From Escherichia coli (GTDB taxonomy: Bacteria > Pseudomonadota > Gammaproteobacteria > Enterobacterales > Enterobacteriaceae), in the NCBI RefSeq assembly GCF_041248615.1, contig NZ_CP158426.1: a stretch of 64,000 nucleotides of DNA. The stretch is one strand, 5' to 3'. A program made the position numbers and the translations under genes. Shown here piece by piece: positions 33,969 through 44,466 of the stretch; position 1 is the stretch's first letter, and each line of letters begins with the position of its first letter. The notes under the pieces were generated by a model. It ran no database searches. It had not been told where the DNA came from and saw only the letters and a program-made list of their open reading frames with translations.

Positions 33969-34445
33969 ATGAAACTCATCAGTAATGATCTGCGCGATGG
34001 CGATAAGTTGCCGCATCGTCATGTCTTTAACGGCATGGGTTACGATGGCGATAATATTTCACCGCATCTGGCGTGGGATGATGTTCCTGCGGGAACGAAA
34101 AGTTTTGTTGTCACCTGCTTTGACCCGGACGCGCCAACCGGCTCCGGCTGGTGGCACTGGGTCGTTGTTAACTTACCCGCTGATACCCGCGTATTACCGC
34201 AAGGGTTTGGCTCTGGTCTGGTAGCAATGCCTGACGGCGTTTTGCAGACGCGTACCGACTTTGGTAAAGCCGGATACGGTGGCGCAGCGCCGCCGAAAGG
34301 CGAAACCCATCGCTACATTTTTACCGTTCACGCGCTGGATGTAGAACGTATTGATGTCGATGAAGGTGCCAGCGGCGCGATGGTCGGGTTTAACGTCCAT
34401 TTCCACTCTCTGGCAAGCGCCTCGATTACTGCGATGTTTAGTTAA
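33969..34445 (+). CDS. ybhB: PEBP/YbhB-family protein
   Basis: 158 aa; PEBP fold motifs; adjacent to bioA as in K-12. Confidence 0.9.
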   Translation: MKLISNDLRDGDKLPHRHVFNGMGYDGDNISPHLAWDDVPAGTKSFVVTCFDPDAPTGSGWWHWVVVNLPADTRVLPQGFGSGLVAMPDGVLQTRTDFGKAGYGGAAPPKGETHRYIFTVHALDVERIDVDEGASGAMVGFNVHFHSLASASITAMFS

Positions 34446-34535
34446 TCACTCTGCCAGATGGCGCTATGCCATCTGGTATCACTTAAAGGTATTAAAAACA
34501 ACTTTTTGTCTTTTTACCTTCCCGTTTCGCTCAAG

Positions 34536-34550
34536 TTAGTATAAAAAAGC
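34536..34550. other. lambda att core (O region) at prophage-chromosome junction (attR-type: P arm - core - B')
   Basis: ttagtataaaaaagc = reverse complement of the 15-bp lambda core GCTTTTTTATACTAA; the lower-coordinate flank matches chromosomal attB (..CTTGAGCGAAACGGGAAGG) and the higher-coordinate flank matches the lambda attP P-arm. Confidence 0.85.
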
Positions 34551-34700
34551 TGAACGAGAAACGTAAATGATATAAATATCAATATATTAAATTAGATTTT
34601 GCATAAAAAACAGACTACAAAATACTGTAAAACACAACATATGCAGTCACTATGAATCAACTACTTAGATGATATTAGTGACCTGTAACAGAGCATTAGC
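34551..34700. promoter_or_regulatory. lambda-like attP P-arm (Int arm-type/IHF/Xis/Fis site region)
   Basis: AT-rich sequence (..CGTTTCTCGTTCA next to the core, ..TGCAAAATCTAATTTAATATATTGATATTTATATCATTTACG.. as reverse complement) matching the lambda P arm from memory. Confidence 0.65.
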
Positions 34701-35227
34701 GCAAGGTGATTTTTTGTCCTCTTGCGCTAATTTTTTGTCAACTCACTGGGTTAGTTGAATTTACAACCATGCTCAGTATCTCGATAAGCGCAGGGAGATG
34801 ATGCAGTGGTGGGCGGACTGGCTTGATGAAAGTGTGCTGTAATCCTCATATCCAACCTAAGAGATATGCACAATTTTGTGAATAAGATATTGAGAATTAG
34901 CAAAAGTTTTATTTTGCGTATCATCAATTCAGAATACAAAGTCACATGCTAATGTTCTGCATTGGTATCTTTTGCTTATCCATGTCTACATTATCGCCAA
35001 AATAATAGGTTTTGCCTATCAATTATTTGAATTACTTCCATGAAATTATAACGCACTTGTAATTTTTGATTATTTTTACCTCTCAAGTGTTTTGTTTCTT
35101 CTATCTCTTTGTATTTTTAGCGAAAGTATGCCATATTGCATTCTAATATAACGTGGCGTTGTTTCTGTTTAATGATTTAAATAGTTCAACATAATATTTG
35201 CTAACAAATTATATCCAAGCAAATCAT

Positions 35228-36373
35228 ATGATATTATCATTACAATATATTAGAGGAATAGCATCATTACTTGTTGTTTTATTCCACTTCAGATTCTTGC
35301 TAAATGAGCACTACTCTCAGAAAGATTTGGGTGACCTATTATTTGGGAATGGGCTGTCTGGAGTTGATATATTCTTCATATTAAGTGGATTTATCATCGT
35401 ATACTCAACAAGAAAGAAGGAAGTTAATGATACTTTCTCATTCTCAATTAGAAGAATATTTAGAATATACCCATTACTAATCACATGCTGTTGCATGTAT
35501 TACATAATAAACACTCAATTTCTAACCTATGCTACAGTTGAAAACTTTAGAACCTTACTTATTTCCATCATTCCATTAAATATAAACTGGAATGAAGGCG
35601 CTCCATTCTTTGCCTATAATCTTTTGTACCCGGCCTGGACGATAACATATGAAATTGGTTTCTATGTTTTTTTCGGGGTATCAATGTCTATTTCGCATAA
35701 ATACAGAACAATTATCTGTTCTGTTTTTATAATCATGGTGGTCTCATTTACACAATACTATGTAAATGGAAATATATCATTTTCAGGTGATGTTAGTGCA
35801 GGGTTATTTACAGATAACTGGTTATTAGGATATACAAATGTTATTACATCTCCAATGATGTATGAATTCGTTATTGGGATGTTTCTTTCTGAAATATTTA
35901 CAAACATCAACGAAAGCAAAAGTATTAAAAGGATACTTTCAAAGTATTCGCTTCAAATACTATGGATTTCATGTGGTATATCCATAATATTATTCATTAT
36001 CCAGCGACCTTATGGGCATGGATTGAATGGATTTGGGACTATGGCGATGATACTTATTGCATCATCATTAGTATATGAATACTGCAATATAACACCCAAA
36101 ATAAAAATATTTAATTTCCTTGGTGAAATATCATATTCTTTATATCTAATTCACGCCGTGATACTTGCTTTGTTCTTCTATTATAAGGCAGACCTTGCTG
36201 AAATTGGCATAACTGGTGGATTTTCTGTGTTTTTTTCCTTGGTTATTATCTCAATAACTGCATCATATCCAATATATATTCTCATTGAAAAGCCAATGAT
36301 AAATATAGGTAAACGTTTAATTGACAAGAGAAATAAGAGCATTAACAAAAAAGAAACCGAAATAACAGCGTGA
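35228..36373 (+). CDS. acyltransferase family 3 membrane protein (O-antigen/OafA-type acetyltransferase-like)
   Basis: about 381 aa, 10+ TM; N-terminal YIRGIASLLVVLFH and FFILSGF motifs typical of acyltransferase_3; AT-rich; ORF 35198 (TTG) trimmed to ATG 35228. Confidence 0.75.
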   Translation: MILSLQYIRGIASLLVVLFHFRFLLNEHYSQKDLGDLLFGNGLSGVDIFFILSGFIIVYSTRKKEVNDTFSFSIRRIFRIYPLLITCCCMYYIINTQFLTYATVENFRTLLISIIPLNINWNEGAPFFAYNLLYPAWTITYEIGFYVFFGVSMSISHKYRTIICSVFIIMVVSFTQYYVNGNISFSGDVSAGLFTDNWLLGYTNVITSPMMYEFVIGMFLSEIFTNINESKSIKRILSKYSLQILWISCGISIILFIIQRPYGHGLNGFGTMAMILIASSLVYEYCNITPKIKIFNFLGEISYSLYLIHAVILALFFYYKADLAEIGITGGFSVFFSLVIISITASYPIYILIEKPMINIGKRLIDKRNKSINKKETEITA

Positions 36374-36410
36374 TAATGACAAAGTTAGTGCCGGGATACC
36401 CCGGCACTAT

Positions 36411-37748
36411 TTAATCTATTTCGTAAGTGACAGTGATTATCACTTCTGCATTATTACCCAAAACATTTTGATATATATTCATATTACCTGATAATGTAGT
36501 TGCTCCAGTAAGAGTTATATAACTACTATTTGCATCAACCCTTGGAAGTAAAGCGGTAACTGCTGTTGTTAAATTATTATAGTAGCCTGTACTTCCAACA
36601 TATGCAGCTTTATTGCTTGATACATATGGTAACCCTCCAATTCTGAAACCATCTCCTGACCCAATTAAAGTTATACCAAGGTGACATGTTGCCGTTATGA
36701 TATTGCCACTCCTGACATAATTTCCTTTCTGCTGATAATATGTGGCATTACCACCTACAGTCGGAATCCAAACTCCAGTTTCTATATCACCACATGACCA
36801 GTCTTCTGCTGTTGTTAGTTTTCCAGTAACAATAAATTTACTTCCACCACCAGAATTATAAGGAACAAAAATTGGATTTATTCTTGCATAAGTGTTACCG
36901 GTCTGCTCATTAAGATCATTTCTATCAATAAGAACTTGACCATTTTCGAAGTTTGAAATCTGGCAGTCTGTTACACTCCAGTCTCTTAACTTCACATCAG
37001 CATCCATGACACCAATAAGCTTACCAGCATTACCAATTTTTTCTTTATGCATATTTACATACACATTTCTTACCGTAACAGACTGAGGGAACAGATAATT
37101 AGCAGGATTAGTTTTATCACTTAAAACAGATATTACCCAAGGTCTGTATTGAGTACTTACTTCACAATAAAATCCATCAATAAGCGTTCCAGATGCCGCT
37201 GGCCCAAGTAGTATTCCACCTGTAGAGTGATGCGCACTACCTCCAATTACTCTCCCCTTAACGCAGTTAATATAGGCAAAACATCCTAAATCTTGATTGT
37301 CATAGGCTGACATAGCACAGTCTCTAACTGTTACTCGAGAATTTCCTCCGTCATAAGCTGAGCCATCAGTTTTCTTACCAACTATTGATATAAAGTTACC
37401 AATAGCAACTCGACTATAAAAAGTTTTTTTATAACACCCCTCAATTAAAATATCCCAGTTTTCAAACTGAGCATATATATCATAAATGCTGGCATTCCCA
37501 TAATCTATGAAATCACAATATCTTATTTTCGGCGTATAAACGGCACTTTTTATCTTTATACCACCTAATGCTCTCTCCCCACCTGTGAATCTAATGCCAG
37601 TAACGGTGTAATCGCCTTGATAGAAATTATCTGCGGTAGGATTATTTTCGTCAGAATCATCACCCAATATAATAGCAAATTCACTCCCTGAATAATTAAT
37701 TGTCGCCCCCTTATTTGAATATATAGTTACAGGTCTTATAAACTCCAA
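36411..37748 (-). CDS. beta-helix (pectate-lyase-like) protein, probable tailspike/tail-fibre distal fragment; no ATG start
   Basis: 445 aa, Asn/Gly/Ser/Thr-rich with repeated short beta-strand pattern; first codon in frame after the stop is TTG, with no ATG or N-terminal adaptor domain; AT-rich. Confidence 0.5.
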   Translation of the reverse strand: MEFIRPVTIYSNKGATINYSGSEFAIILGDDSDENNPTADNFYQGDYTVTGIRFTGGERALGGIKIKSAVYTPKIRYCDFIDYGNASIYDIYAQFENWDILIEGCYKKTFYSRVAIGNFISIVGKKTDGSAYDGGNSRVTVRDCAMSAYDNQDLGCFAYINCVKGRVIGGSAHHSTGGILLGPAASGTLIDGFYCEVSTQYRPWVISVLSDKTNPANYLFPQSVTVRNVYVNMHKEKIGNAGKLIGVMDADVKLRDWSVTDCQISNFENGQVLIDRNDLNEQTGNTYARINPIFVPYNSGGGSKFIVTGKLTTAEDWSCGDIETGVWIPTVGGNATYYQQKGNYVRSGNIITATCHLGITLIGSGDGFRIGGLPYVSSNKAAYVGSTGYYNNLTTAVTALLPRVDANSSYITLTGATTLSGNMNIYQNVLGNNAEVIITVTYEID

Positions 37749-38140
37749 AGAATTACTTATCAGATACTCTCCATAAGGAAAAAAATCTCAACTGGTGGTG
37801 AGTACTTTGGTCTGGAGTTTACGTAATTCATAATATTGATTACACCAACATCATAGATAATCGCCACCTTCTGGCGAGGAGCTCCTGATGCAATTAATCG
37901 CCAGGCCTACGCCCATTATTCATGGGTAAATTTTGGACGGAGCCCCCAATTCCATCCTCAATTCTCCCTCGCACTGAGGAGTAGTAAGTGCAATTATTTA
38001 AAAAATCGCAAACAGAATATTATCATTTATTCTTGCATTCTGTTAATTAAAACCACACATAAAAACGTTGATACTTGATAAGTAAGTAGAGTATTATTAA
38101 TGGTTTTAATAACGAACCTTTTAATCATGAGAAGCCTCAA

Positions 38141-39166
38141 ATGACTAGTACCAATAACATAACAAGAAAAAAAATGGATGGAGTAACAATCTTAAGATTT
38201 ATAGCTGCTTTTTATGTGTTTATTTTTCACATTAACATGAGAGTCCCCGTTAATTTTGGAGAGCTTATTAATAAAACCATTAGCAATGGCGTCATTGGCA
38301 TGAGTATTTTCTTCATGCTTTCTGGTTTTGTTTTGACTTATAATTACTATGGTTCCTTGTCAAACAATTACTTCAGGAAGCGAATAGCAAGAATATTTCC
38401 AGCCTATTTATTTTGTGGGCTTTTAACCCTCCCATTTTTGTTATCCAGCGATGCAAGCTTTTTAAAAATGATTGCAAGCATATTCTTGTTTGTTACTGGA
38501 ATGCAATCATGGATTTATCAGACCTTCGATTTTTGGAATTTTAGCGGTACCTGGTCAATATCAGTGGAATTGTTTTTTTATGCCCTGTTTCCATTTTTGA
38601 TAAAAAACATCAACAAAAACAATGTAATTTATGTTTTACTTTTTTCATATTTATCTTCAGCATTATTAATCCCATTATCTGATATAATTCAGGGACCTGT
38701 AGTTTGGTCCGTATATTACGCAACTCCAATATACAGGTTACCAGAATTTGTGGTGGGCGTCTGTATCGCAATACTTTTTTTAAATGGCTATCGTGTTAAC
38801 CATTATACATGGCTATTAAGCATTTTATTATTTCTGTATGCTACCACCCAGCAAAACAATAACTCCATGGGGGTGAACTATCTCACAATTCCTGCGATAT
38901 CAATTATGTTATTGCACCTGGCAAAAATCAACATCAAAAACAACATTGCAAACAGAGCGATCATTTACTTTGGAGATATAAGTTATTCGTTTTATTTGAT
39001 GCAATTACCTATATTATATTACCTGGATCATAATAAAAACTCATTTATTCTTAACTATGGTCTTTTTAGCTGGCTTGTACTTTTTGTTATTAATACTGCA
39101 ATGGCATCATTATCTTATCACTTTCTGGAGAAGAACGATAAAATCAGAAAAATAATTACATCCTGA
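38141..39166 (+). CDS. acyltransferase family 3 membrane protein (O-antigen acetyltransferase Oac-like)
   Basis: 341 aa, multi-TM; ILRFIAAFYVFIFH and FFMLSGFVLTYN motifs; ATG start; very AT-rich. Confidence 0.78.
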   Translation: MTSTNNITRKKMDGVTILRFIAAFYVFIFHINMRVPVNFGELINKTISNGVIGMSIFFMLSGFVLTYNYYGSLSNNYFRKRIARIFPAYLFCGLLTLPFLLSSDASFLKMIASIFLFVTGMQSWIYQTFDFWNFSGTWSISVELFFYALFPFLIKNINKNNVIYVLLFSYLSSALLIPLSDIIQGPVVWSVYYATPIYRLPEFVVGVCIAILFLNGYRVNHYTWLLSILLFLYATTQQNNNSMGVNYLTIPAISIMLLHLAKINIKNNIANRAIIYFGDISYSFYLMQLPILYYLDHNKNSFILNYGLFSWLVLFVINTAMASLSYHFLEKNDKIRKIITS

Positions 39167-39170
39167 TTTA

Positions 39171-39190
39171 TTAGGGGGGTACCCCCCTAA
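39171..39190. terminator. bidirectional hairpin terminator between acyltransferase and tail-fibre assembly gene
   Basis: perfect palindrome ttaggggggtacccccctaa flanked by T/A runs, between convergent stops (39166 and 39208). Confidence 0.65.
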
Positions 39191-39207
39191 TAATACACCA
39201 CATAATT

Positions 39208-39603
39208 TCAACGTATTATCTCTGGCCTTTCTGGCCAGGTTATTTCTGGAATTAAGGACAAATCCACTGACATTAAATTATTAACATATTCCTTCCATAA
39301 CAAAAGATTGTTCTTGTTATTTTCACTTATAATACCGAGTAACAAATCTGACTGCCAGTTCATAATTAAACCATTAGCACTATCCAGCAGACACTGTCTT
39401 TCATTCTCTGCCTCACGAAGTAATTCATCATGTGTTTTTGGCGGCTGCGTAGGTGACGAAAGCTTTCCCTTATCATAGAACCAACCAATTCTTACATTAT
39501 CGGATACAGGTATAACTAACGCATTAGTTGGTTGCCAGGCACTCTCACCATCCCATACCGCAATATTGGTAACAACACCATTTTCTATAACGGCATAGTT
39601 CAT
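39208..39603 (-). CDS. tail fibre assembly protein (Tfa-like chaperone)
   Basis: ORF 39208..39618 trimmed to MNYAVIENGVVTNIAVWDG.. (typical Tfa N-terminus); ATG overlaps tail-fibre stop. Confidence 0.8.
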   Translation of the reverse strand: MNYAVIENGVVTNIAVWDGESAWQPTNALVIPVSDNVRIGWFYDKGKLSSPTQPPKTHDELLREAENERQCLLDSANGLIMNWQSDLLLGIISENNKNNLLLWKEYVNNLMSVDLSLIPEITWPERPEIIR

Positions 39604-40712
39604 CACGCATACTCCCAAATGATTGCAATACCAGCCATTCCGCTACCTCCGGCACGCTGCTGCGTCGCTCCACCGTAGACACAGGCACCACCGCCTCCAC
39701 CACCATGGCCATTAGCATTAATACCTTCGCCTACAATGGCTTGTGACCCAGCCCCCGCACCAAGGATTGAATCGCCGCCAGGCCCCCCCATCGCCAGACT
39801 GCCGGAATACCGAACGCCTGGTGAGCTATAACCGCTTCCAGACCCGATAATATTTGCACCTGTAAATCCCGGCTCAGTATATGCTCCATACGGACCAACA
39901 ACCCCTGGAGCAGTTCCTTCAGCAAGAACATCCCCACCAAGGCCACCTTTGGCAATTATGGTATTGCCGAAAGAGGTTGTTCCCCCGGGAGCACCAACCG
40001 ACGCACTTGCACCAGTGCCACCATATCCGATTGTCACAGTAGTTACGGTTGGATTATCCACGCGAGCTTTAACATACTCCCCGGACATCCCCCCGCCACC
40101 ACAAGCAGCATTATTGGGATAACCGACCTGACAACCACCACCGGCCCCACCACCACCAACAATTTCAACAATAATAAATTTTGTGCCTTTTGTCGGAGTG
40201 TATGTACCTGAGCTTTTAAACACCTGACACTGTATAAGCCTCCCGGAGCCATCTCCCAAACCAAGGTATGCGAGAATGTCATCAATAGTATTTTTGCCGA
40301 TAATATCACGGCCTACCTTAGTGAGGTCGGTCTGCGCAGCCTTATCTGTGCCAGTGAAATACGGTAGCTTATTTGCACCTGTCGCCAGTCCGGCCAGAGC
40401 CGTCAACGTGGCATCAAGCGCCTGATAATCCTTACCGAATGCAGAAGACATTTTGGTAATGAATCCATTCAGGTCGCCATCATCCAATACATCCAGTCCG
40501 CTTTTGTTTGCTGTGTACTGTGCAAGTGCTGCAGCAATAAAGCTGGCCTGCCGAATAACCTTATTGACTTGCGCACTGGAGGCTTTCCCTGCTGTAAATC
40601 CGGATAAAAGCGCGGGCAACGCTTCCCATTCCTCCTGCGATATAACATTGGCATTTCGATCCGTTGCAAACGCTTTAAAGTCATTTTTCGCCATCAGAGT
40701 AATACTCCCCAT
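39603..40712 (-). CDS. tail fibre protein (Mu S/P2 H-like N-terminus, Gly-rich C-terminal domain)
   Basis: 369 aa; conserved N-terminal MAKNDFKAF..SQEEWEALP..; C-terminal glycine-rich repeats. Confidence 0.8.
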   Translation of the reverse strand: MGSITLMAKNDFKAFATDRNANVISQEEWEALPALLSGFTAGKASSAQVNKVIRQASFIAAALAQYTANKSGLDVLDDGDLNGFITKMSSAFGKDYQALDATLTALAGLATGANKLPYFTGTDKAAQTDLTKVGRDIIGKNTIDDILAYLGLGDGSGRLIQCQVFKSSGTYTPTKGTKFIIVEIVGGGGAGGGCQVGYPNNAACGGGGMSGEYVKARVDNPTVTTVTIGYGGTGASASVGAPGGTTSFGNTIIAKGGLGGDVLAEGTAPGVVGPYGAYTEPGFTGANIIGSGSGYSSPGVRYSGSLAMGGPGGDSILGAGAGSQAIVGEGINANGHGGGGGGACVYGGATQQRAGGSGMAGIAIIWEYA

Positions 40713-43740: not shown

Positions 43741-44466
43741 TCAGTTTATAAGCCCCATCTTACCGGCGCTTCGATAGTTAATTACATCGCCTGAAGAGCC
43801 GCAAGGCACAGCTACAGTCGACATTTTGACAAATCCTTTACCGCCCTGCTTTTGGCATAAAGTGGCATGCATTTTTGCTAAACGCGCAGCATGACCAAAA
43901 TCAATTTTGGTTCCGTAAGTTGAATCTCGTAGAGCTGCTTTTTTTGCAATTCCAGTAATATTTTTGTCTTTAATTACAGATGCAAACAAACTCAAATCAT
44001 TTCCAATTTGATTGAAGCAAGTACGATTAATATCAACATCGGCATACGCTGAAATGCGTTTGCAATCTGAGATCTGAGAAAGCACAGATGTGTTAACCAG
44101 TTGCAAATTTAATTTGTAGTCACCGACATAGGTATAAACTTTGTTAGGGTCCGTGGTTCCCGGATAACGAGTTACGAATGGAATGCTGTTGTACGCATCT
44201 CGCAAAGATTCTGCACCCTTACTTTTAAGCTCGTTCCCAACACCAGCAACGATAACCTCTGGATGTGAAACTTCAAATTGAGACTTTTCTTCGCGCTGTA
44301 TTTGAAGCCTGCTTTTCTGGCTCTCCTCAACTTGCTTATCGTACGCTTGTTTTTCTTCATTTTTTTGGGATAGCCATTTTTCCTGCGCTTTAGCACCATT
44401 AGGATCCCAACTACATGAAGTTAAAAAAAGAGAAAATACGATTGTGGTTATCGCAAGCCTGCTCAC
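43741..44466 (-). CDS. lipoprotein of unknown function (moron inside tail/baseplate module)
   Basis: 241 aa; GTG start with GAGGTG SD; signal peptide plus lipobox LTSC; AT-rich relative to flanking tail genes; own terminator. Confidence 0.7.
   Translation of the reverse strand: MSRLAITTIVFSLFLTSCSWDPNGAKAQEKWLSQKNEEKQAYDKQVEESQKSRLQIQREEKSQFEVSHPEVIVAGVGNELKSKGAESLRDAYNSIPFVTRYPGTTDPNKVYTYVGDYKLNLQLVNTSVLSQISDCKRISAYADVDINRTCFNQIGNDLSLFASVIKDKNITGIAKKAALRDSTYGTKIDFGHAARLAKMHATLCQKQGGKGFVKMSTVAVPCGSSGDVINYRSAGKMGLIN

Follow-up and report, generated by a model that had tools for sequence, protein, structure and literature searches.

A prophage tail fibre of Escherichia coli with a Pam3 gp24-type tip, probably the surviving half of an invertible host-range switch

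The stretch of DNA considered here (the window; 64,000 nucleotides of contig NZ_CP158426.1 from Escherichia coli) is 100% identical to E. coli NRZ14408 and carries, at att-lambda, a lambdoid prophage with a SEN34-like (Brunovirus-like) contractile tail. The tail-fibre gene of this prophage (39603–40694, minus strand; stop codon 39603–39605) probably encodes a fibre whose tip is of the type known from gp24 of cyanophage Pam3, and appears to be the surviving half of a Pin/Cin/Gin-type switch that is now locked, a reading to which a probability of about 0.8 is assigned from sequence comparison and predicted structure. The gene would encode a single short fibre of the SEN34-like tail, in which a helical constant part of about 146 aa would link the fibre to the baseplate and a 217-aa tip of stacked glycine-rich strands, folded by the Caudo_TAP chaperone from the next gene, would bind the receptor through six hypervariable segments. 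Tip and chaperone would be what remains of the switch, an acyltransferase gene having replaced the alternative tip, its chaperone, the second crossover site and most of the invertase, so that the host range would be locked.

The tip occupies the C-terminal part of the fibre (39606–40256, minus strand; aa 153–369, with residues numbered on the 369-aa open reading frame (ORF), from which 6 is to be subtracted for the 363-aa protein). It contains 63 glycines in 217 aa (29%), compared with 8.6% glycine in the first 152 aa. An earlier inspection of the letters and ORFs, hereafter the sequence-only reading, had described a tail fibre at 39603–40712 with a glycine-rich C-terminal domain; this description holds, the gene is intact, and both strings then singled out, GGGGAGGG and GHGGGGGGA, are found in the fibre. 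Pfam recognizes Gly_rich_2 (PF21722) at aa 169–365 with 40 bits against a cut-off of 24.3, and a literature search on this family found no direct paper. An exhaustive search returned 4331 representatives of 50%-identity clusters matching the tip at E ≤ 1e-3. In all relatives listed the domain stands at the C-terminus of the protein, behind N-terminal parts of very different length.

The relationship to Pam3 only becomes visible at the level of the family. Compared with the Protein Data Bank (PDB) by phmmer, the single tip sequence gives noise only, while a profile built from 141 family sequences matches Pam3 gp24 across the whole domain (7YPX, E = 1.9e-8; 7YFW, E = 6.7e-8). An AlphaFold2 (AF2) model of the tip, made from the family alignment, reaches a mean predicted local distance difference test (pLDDT) score of 95.9 and a predicted template modelling score of 0.91. 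Foldseek ranks the Pam3 fibre and tail-tip proteins of mycobacteriophage Bxb1 highest for this model, followed by ALK/LTK. A gp38-type fold was also considered for the tip and rejected. The glycine-rich half is thus predicted to be a folded domain, a TNF-like beta-sandwich with a glycine-rich lattice, homologous to Pam3 gp24. Its earlier description as Gly-rich repeats captured the composition but not the architecture, which is modelled as a folded lattice rather than a run of repeats. That the region is instead a low-complexity, disordered or collagen-like spacer, or an enzyme, might be read from its 29% glycine and from the name ‘carbohydrate kinase’ that many homologues bear. This is scarcely tenable, as the AF2 model is compact and confident, the glycine positions are conserved over 141 diverse sequences, and the Pfam scan shows no kinase family.

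Column entropy over the 141 family members separates nearly invariant glycine motifs from six hypervariable segments lying between them (aa 194–199, 216–225, 261–283, 304–308, 322–329, and 347–354). These segments are likely to be the receptor contacts, and the longest of them (aa 261–283; 39864–39932, minus strand) is a candidate receptor-contact region. In Pam3 gp24, the strands of the TNF-like sandwich run into stacked glycine-rich motifs, and the variable distal tip is proposed to bind the receptor (PMC9608196). In a Klebsiella phage, a fibre of the same type recognizes lipopolysaccharide (PMC12671077).

The remainder of the fibre is a constant N-terminal part (‘Sc’; 146 aa; 40257–40694, minus strand), mostly alpha-helical in the model, which presumably serves as baseplate attachment and shaft. 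Judged by the position of the gene, it most likely joins the fibre to the baseplate. The fibre gene is the last of the baseplate cluster, which also encodes a spike (phage spike N-terminal domain and GpV apex motif), a Baseplate_J protein and a DUF2612 protein. Over the first 147 aa the fibre of phage SEN34 shows 81% identity, and it diverges right after ..YLG; P7 S and related P1-like fibres (RCS47, SJ46) align over about 145 aa at roughly 41–42%. In P2 H, P1 S and lambda Stf the match is limited to a motif of about 40 aa that immediately precedes the tip (for P2 H, aa 108–146 only, at 54%). The label ‘conserved Mu S/P2 H-type N-terminus’ given to the fibre earlier is therefore only loosely right: P2 H shares the 40-aa motif, but the Pfam scan finds neither of the P2-type N-terminal domains PF12571 and PF03406 in the fibre. 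Mu S was rejected as an N-terminal relative, its best protein similarity being non-significant (E = 0.43).

The maximal ORF of the fibre gene in the ORF list spans 39603–40712 (minus strand; 369 aa). The true start is likely the ATG at 40694, which gives a coding sequence of 363 aa, because this codon overlaps the stop of the upstream DUF2612 gene (..cTGATGg..), the NCBI annotation pipeline (PGAP) begins its N-terminal fragment there, and a cluster of 100 member sequences, likewise of 363 aa, matches the resulting protein. No stop codon interrupts the reading frame, and the gene is coupled to both neighbours through overlaps of start and stop codons. PHROG tail-fibre families match it with E = 6.5e-84. 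Annotation of tip genes in RefSeq is poor in several of the loci compared (L001 17604–18695, L003 13605–14249, L006 7396–8040, and L008 7197–8054): either the gene is divided between a pseudogene and a ‘glycine-rich domain-containing protein’, or a pseudogene marked ‘stfP, missing C-terminus’ is followed by a tip that has no annotation. In many database entries, ‘carbohydrate kinase’ is the label of the tip.

The gene directly downstream (39208–39603, minus strand) encodes a 131-aa tail-fibre assembly chaperone, whose start overlaps the stop codon of the fibre gene. Pfam assigns it to Caudo_TAP (PF02413; E = 2.8e-23, 82.9 bits against a cut-off of 22.1), and PHROG tail-fibre assembly families match it as well. 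It would assist folding of the tip; in Pam3, the N-terminal domain of the chaperone gp25 contacts and grips the tip region (PMC9608196). This gene, the crossover site and the invertase remnant described below had all been missed by the sequence-only reading.

The boundary between constant part and tip is marked by a 26-bp crossover site of the Pin/Cin/Gin type (40251–40276, minus strand; TTCTCGCATACC TT GGTTTGGGAGAT), which encodes ..Y|LGLGD.. at the junction. The site aligns with the annotated cixR of P1, crossover dinucleotide included, and is laid out like the sites of e14, Mu, phage 606R2 and a sibling prophage (L008). It is also the homology breakpoint, at 40275, with respect to e14-like prophages. 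No second site occurs in the 64-kb window, either with up to 3 mismatches or by a scan for half-site symmetry, 40251–40276 being the sole match. The invertase gene is represented by a decayed 3′ fragment of a pin-type serine invertase (37832–37945, minus strand), detected by tblastn with the L008 invertase and PinE as queries. This fragment corresponds to PinE aa 138–175 (38 aa, 71% identity, E = 4e-14), matches pinE of K-12-type genomes at 86% of nucleotides and contains two in-frame stop codons, as seen on inspection of the reading frames. No intact serine invertase gene lies beside the segment, only this remnant, and no alternative tip with chaperone lies there in the opposite orientation; that place is held by an acyltransferase gene (acyltransferase 2; 38141–39166, plus strand).

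One site, together with an invertase remnant lying beyond acyltransferase 2, indicates that this gene now stands where the second site, the alternative tip with its chaperone and three quarters of the invertase gene used to be. Since there is a single site, no second one and an invertase reduced to a remnant with stop codons, the host range of the fibre would be locked. The locus thus appears to be what is left, in locked form, of an invertible host-range switch whose alternative tip gave way to an acyltransferase gene.

What such a switch looks like when complete can be seen in the sibling prophage L008 (NZ_LR536431), which occupies the same att site. Alongside a gene for a serine invertase (Resolvase and HTH_7 domains), it has a second site and two tips, each accompanied by its own chaperone: a gp53-like alternative and the glycine tip, the latter in the expressed orientation. 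The L008 sites were found by reading the junctions and by the half-site scan; a generic inverted-repeat search in L008 did not report them, as they are too short and imperfect. Phage vB_EcoM-606R2 (L005 3983–6524), an isolated relative, retains two crossover sites along with a DNA invertase. The constant part of its fibre is a mosaic, with the first 65 aa of the window type and the site-proximal part of the e14 type (..KTALEN).

That an intact invertible system joins constant part, site and tip in the same way bears on another account of the ORF, namely that it is a non-functional chimera, the product of recombination at att-lambda between an incoming prophage and a remnant already resident there. 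Such an origin would fit the PGAP label of pseudogene on the 5′ part, the right arm of att-lambda (34400–40275), which is 99.7% common to a prophage of another tail type, and a truncated copy of the gene in E. coli B. It fits poorly with an open frame that shares codon overlaps with both neighbours, with the 363-aa cluster of 100 member sequences, with the fibres of SEN34 (381 aa) and 606R2 (264 aa), which are equally short, and with the nearly intact remainder of the prophage. A dead chimera is improbable, and the RefSeq split of the fibre ORF is an annotation artefact.

An exchangeable tip is what the distribution of the domain suggests. The same tip allele (93–99% aa identity) is found on at least 10 N-terminal scaffolds of 293–641 aa, and its carriers span a minimum of three tail types (SEN34-like, e14/StfP-like, and P2-like), with P2-H-like fibres included among the last. 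Three types of constant part occur in four tail or locus settings, that of the window (..DDILAY), that of e14 (..KTALEN), and that of P2-like carriers (..NGILQY); the e14 type is also found on a Brunovirus-like tail from Shigella. These constant parts differ up to the outer half-site, whereas from the central TT onward the DNA is identical. SEN34, in turn, keeps the N-terminus and bears an unrelated tip. The earlier suggestion of an exchangeable receptor-binding tip is borne out by these comparisons.

The exchanged unit extends beyond the tip. Window positions 37841–40275 recur at 98% identity in e14-like prophages, both at ssrA (IAI39) and at tRNA-Pro, and one e14-like prophage at att-lambda shares all of 34400–40275 at 99.7%. 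Tip and chaperone occur together in 68 of 5426 complete E. coli genomes, and at least 80% of the whole module in 65 of 5426. The shared module of 2435 bp (about 2.4 kb) comprises the invertase remnant, acyltransferase 2, the chaperone and the tip, with its left end in the remnant and its right end at the crossover site. Base composition shifts at the same site: guanine-cytosine (GC) content at third codon positions (GC3) is 0.46 in the constant part, as in the baseplate genes, but 0.37 in the tip, 0.34 in the chaperone and 0.35 in acyltransferase 2. Most likely, the 2.4-kb unit between crossover site and invertase remnant is what unrelated tails exchange. Within it, the N-terminal region of the chaperone (about 66 aa) is essentially unchanged in 5 of 6 aligned carriers of the glycine tip, while its C-terminal half is mosaic. 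The constancy of this region fits Pam3 gp25, whose N-terminal domain contacts the tip (PMC9608196).

A number of observations speak against the reading of the locus as a locked switch with a mobile, functional tip, or narrow it. RefSeq divides the intact fibre ORF into a ‘pseudogene’ and a ‘glycine-rich domain-containing protein’. In the P2-like carrier L010, the overall identity of the chaperone drops to 45%, and the junction showed no crossover-like site. Independent descent from invertible ancestors combined with homologous recombination, not site-specific exchange, could also account for the breakpoints at the crossover site. Among the 65 genomes with at least 80% of the module, many are clonal E. 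coli B laboratory strains. P2-like carriers of the tip come without an acyltransferase. The full-length AF2 model is a monomer prediction of a fibre that presumably acts as a trimer, and its N-terminal part, with helices at aa 40–143 and pLDDT of 55–84, is of moderate confidence only. Finally, tblastn and sensitive blastn of the tip against 50,697 deposited phage genomes gave no match, an absence claimed at the DNA level only, since tblastn was probably blunted by the low-complexity filter.

E. coli B offers a view of the same prophage in decay. The att-lambda remnant of E. coli B and BL21 (in REL606, L002 13605–14874) arose by deletion from a prophage of the same type, with integrase and terminase proteins (large terminase included) the same as those here. 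The deletion joins a fragment of the portal gene to the middle of the tip, at a point equivalent to window position 40121. The idea that in E. coli B the tip belongs to another phage was accordingly rejected. PGAP names the portal fragment of E. coli B ‘anti-CBASS protein Acb1 family’, and the intact gene of NRZ14408 is a DUF1073 gene.

That tip and chaperone are kept in so heavily deleted a remnant could hint at a use for the lysogen, with the tip acting as a receptor-blocking anti-phage protein instead of, or besides, a virion fibre. There is a precedent in fibre fragments of e14, where the StfE2 chimera formed after Pin-mediated inversion blocks adsorption of T2 (PMC12529663). However, the gene studied here lies in the late tail operon and is translationally coupled to the baseplate genes, no promoter of its own was identified, and the E. 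coli B copy has neither the N-terminus nor a start codon. Such a role is very improbable, and a virion fibre of a SEN34-like tail remains the preferred assignment.

Beyond the chaperone gene, a low-GC island (30–37% GC) holds two Acyl_transf_3 genes and a 445-aa ORF. The island lies inside the prophage, because the core of att-lambda (GCTTTTTTATACTAA; 34536–34550, minus strand; an exact single match) marks the right end of the prophage. The core is flanked by ybhB and the bio genes, and the integrase gene adjoins ybhC. The fibre gene had been placed directly next to an acyltransferase/beta-helix island; the island is there, though the chaperone gene (39208–39603) stands in between. Acyltransferase 2, the inner of the two (341 aa; Pfam E = 3.8e-27; PHROG O-acetyltransferase E = 2e-40), is convergent with the chaperone gene, and weak evidence points to a promoter-like site near it at 38068–38097. 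Between these two convergent genes lies a perfect 22-bp palindrome (ATTAGGGGGGTACCCCCCTAAT; 39170–39191), read from the sequence and seen as a self-inverted blast match, which is probably a bidirectional terminator; it is absent from the output of a consensus terminator scan. Acyltransferase 1 (35198–36373, plus strand; Pfam E = 1e-30, PHROG O-acetyltransferase E = 2.7e-72; PGAP start 35228) is convergent with the 445-aa ‘beta-helix’ ORF (36411–37748, minus strand), an N-terminally truncated P22-like tailspike with a GC3 of 0.22.

A full-length homologue of this tailspike (648 aa, 82% identity) has Head_binding and pectate-lyase domains, and in its P22-like prophage the tailspike is followed by a convergent Acyl_transf_3+SGNH gene and then by the integrase. 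The ORF in the island is thus a fossil receptor-binding gene, and the island can be described as two stacked convergent pairs of receptor-binding gene and acyltransferase, the outer fossil and the inner live. The same convergent pairing is found in SEN34, where a third, unrelated pair occupies the same place, as well as in the P22-like prophage and the outer pair of the island. Temperate phages such as Sf6 and P22 modify the O-antigen, and receptor masking is the natural reading of such pairs. The acyltransferase would then presumably modify the glycan that the tip binds.

Whether tip and acyltransferase belong together by function or by accident is finely balanced. A coincidental adjacency, with the att-proximal end serving as a general landing place for cargo and the acyltransferase filling the gap of a decaying invertible segment, has a chance only a little short of even. 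It is favoured by P2-like prophages that have tip and chaperone without an acyltransferase, by the invertible sibling L008, which also lacks one, by mutual identities of only 25–32% among the three acyltransferases compared, by debris such as the dead tailspike that accumulates in the island, and by the clonal E. coli B strains among the carriers of the module. On the other side, tip, chaperone and acyltransferase 2 form one 98%-identical unit at a minimum of three chromosomal sites in two tail types, their GC3 values match, and the convergent pairing recurs. A functional link is supported by the recurring pairs and by the way in which tip, chaperone and acyltransferase 2 move together. The sequence-only reading had seen here a host-range locus that co-evolves with modification of surface polysaccharide; joint movement and recurring pairs are in its favour, the P2-like carriers are not, and co-evolution, which rests on linkage, is plausible.

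A bolder extension takes the crossover sites for universal docking junctions, at which tip, chaperone and an acyltransferase modifying the glycan receptor of that tip would cross, as one self-contained ‘recognise and mask’ cassette, between unrelated myovirus tails by Pin/Cin-type site-specific recombination in trans, with loss of the alternative tip as a selected trade in which a switchable host range is given up for superinfection exclusion. This is rather unlikely.

Elsewhere the prophage has lambda-like early genes and is nearly intact. Within the baseplate cluster, a 241-aa ORF (43741–44466, minus strand) of lower GC (0.41) carries a lipoprotein-like signal (..FLTSCSW..). Pfam gives no match for it, and phage 606R2 has other genes at the same position; the ORF may be an inserted accessory (cargo) gene. 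Genes for tRNA-Thr and tRNA-Asn (window approximately 61842–61997, minus strand; L004 12511–12666 in the record annotation) are situated between the Q antiterminator and the lysis genes. An 84-bp pseudogene fragment (34759–34842, plus strand; ‘missing N-terminus’ according to PGAP) lies between the att core and acyltransferase 1.

The locus joins two well-known kinds of module, a Pam3 gp24-type tip and a degenerate, locked Pin/Cin/Gin cassette. Its features belong to ordinary phage biology, and the current understanding of phage host-range modules is not overturned. The comparison nevertheless provides a structural identity of the Pam3 gp24 type for a tip that is common in prophages of E. coli, Shigella and Salmonella, and corrects a widespread mislabelling, as databases mostly list this tip as ‘carbohydrate kinase’, ‘hypothetical’ or pseudogene. 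A base-exact point at which tips are swapped is useful for fibre engineering and for predicting host range from prophage sequence. Through the linked acyltransferase it can be asked whether a phage is equipped to mask the very receptor that its own tip recognizes.

Among the closest known systems are gp24 and gp25 of cyanophage Pam3 (PDB 7YPX/7YFW; PMC9608196), a fibre and its chaperone. In both cases a short, single-protein myovirus fibre is encoded with its chaperone gene directly downstream, and the fibre follows a three-part plan that leads from a helical N-terminal part to a TNF-like sandwich and on to a glycine-rich lattice with variable distal loops. The E. coli fibre differs in being only about 27% identical, in its longer N-terminus of the enterobacterial constant-part type (146 aa), in its Caudo_TAP chaperone, and in a tip that is joined through an invertase crossover site.

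That site relates the locus to the P segment of e14 (pinE), the C segment of P1 (cin) and the G segment of Mu (gin). All share a 26-bp site in the same codon context (..LGL..) at the boundary of constant and variable parts, a cassette made up of tip and chaperone, and an invertase gene placed beyond the cassette. Unlike in these segments, there is one site here, a 38-aa invertase remnant with stop codons, and an acyltransferase gene in the place of the alternative tip and chaperone. With one site, a remnant of the invertase and the alternative cassette replaced, inversion would no longer be possible.

The isolated Salmonella phage SEN34 (Brunovirus) resembles the prophage in its tail, with the same baseplate genes in the same order, the closely related fibre N-terminus noted above, and the succession of fibre, Caudo_TAP chaperone, convergent O-acetyltransferase and integrase/att. 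Its tip, in contrast, is a Phage_fiber_2 repeat domain without Gly_rich_2, its junction has no crossover-like site, and its acyltransferase is only 32% identical.

Gp38 of T4-like phages (S16, T2) likewise alternates glycine-rich motifs with hypervariable segments, which in gp38 set receptor specificity (PMC9608196 and established knowledge), but gp38 is a separate adhesin that caps gp37. More remote are gp33 and gp29 of Bxb1 (PDB 9D93) and the TNF-like/glycine-rich domain of ALK/LTK. These are distant in sequence, act as accessories of a siphovirus tail tip or belong to animal receptor kinases, and have no genomic or functional continuity with the fibre locus described here.

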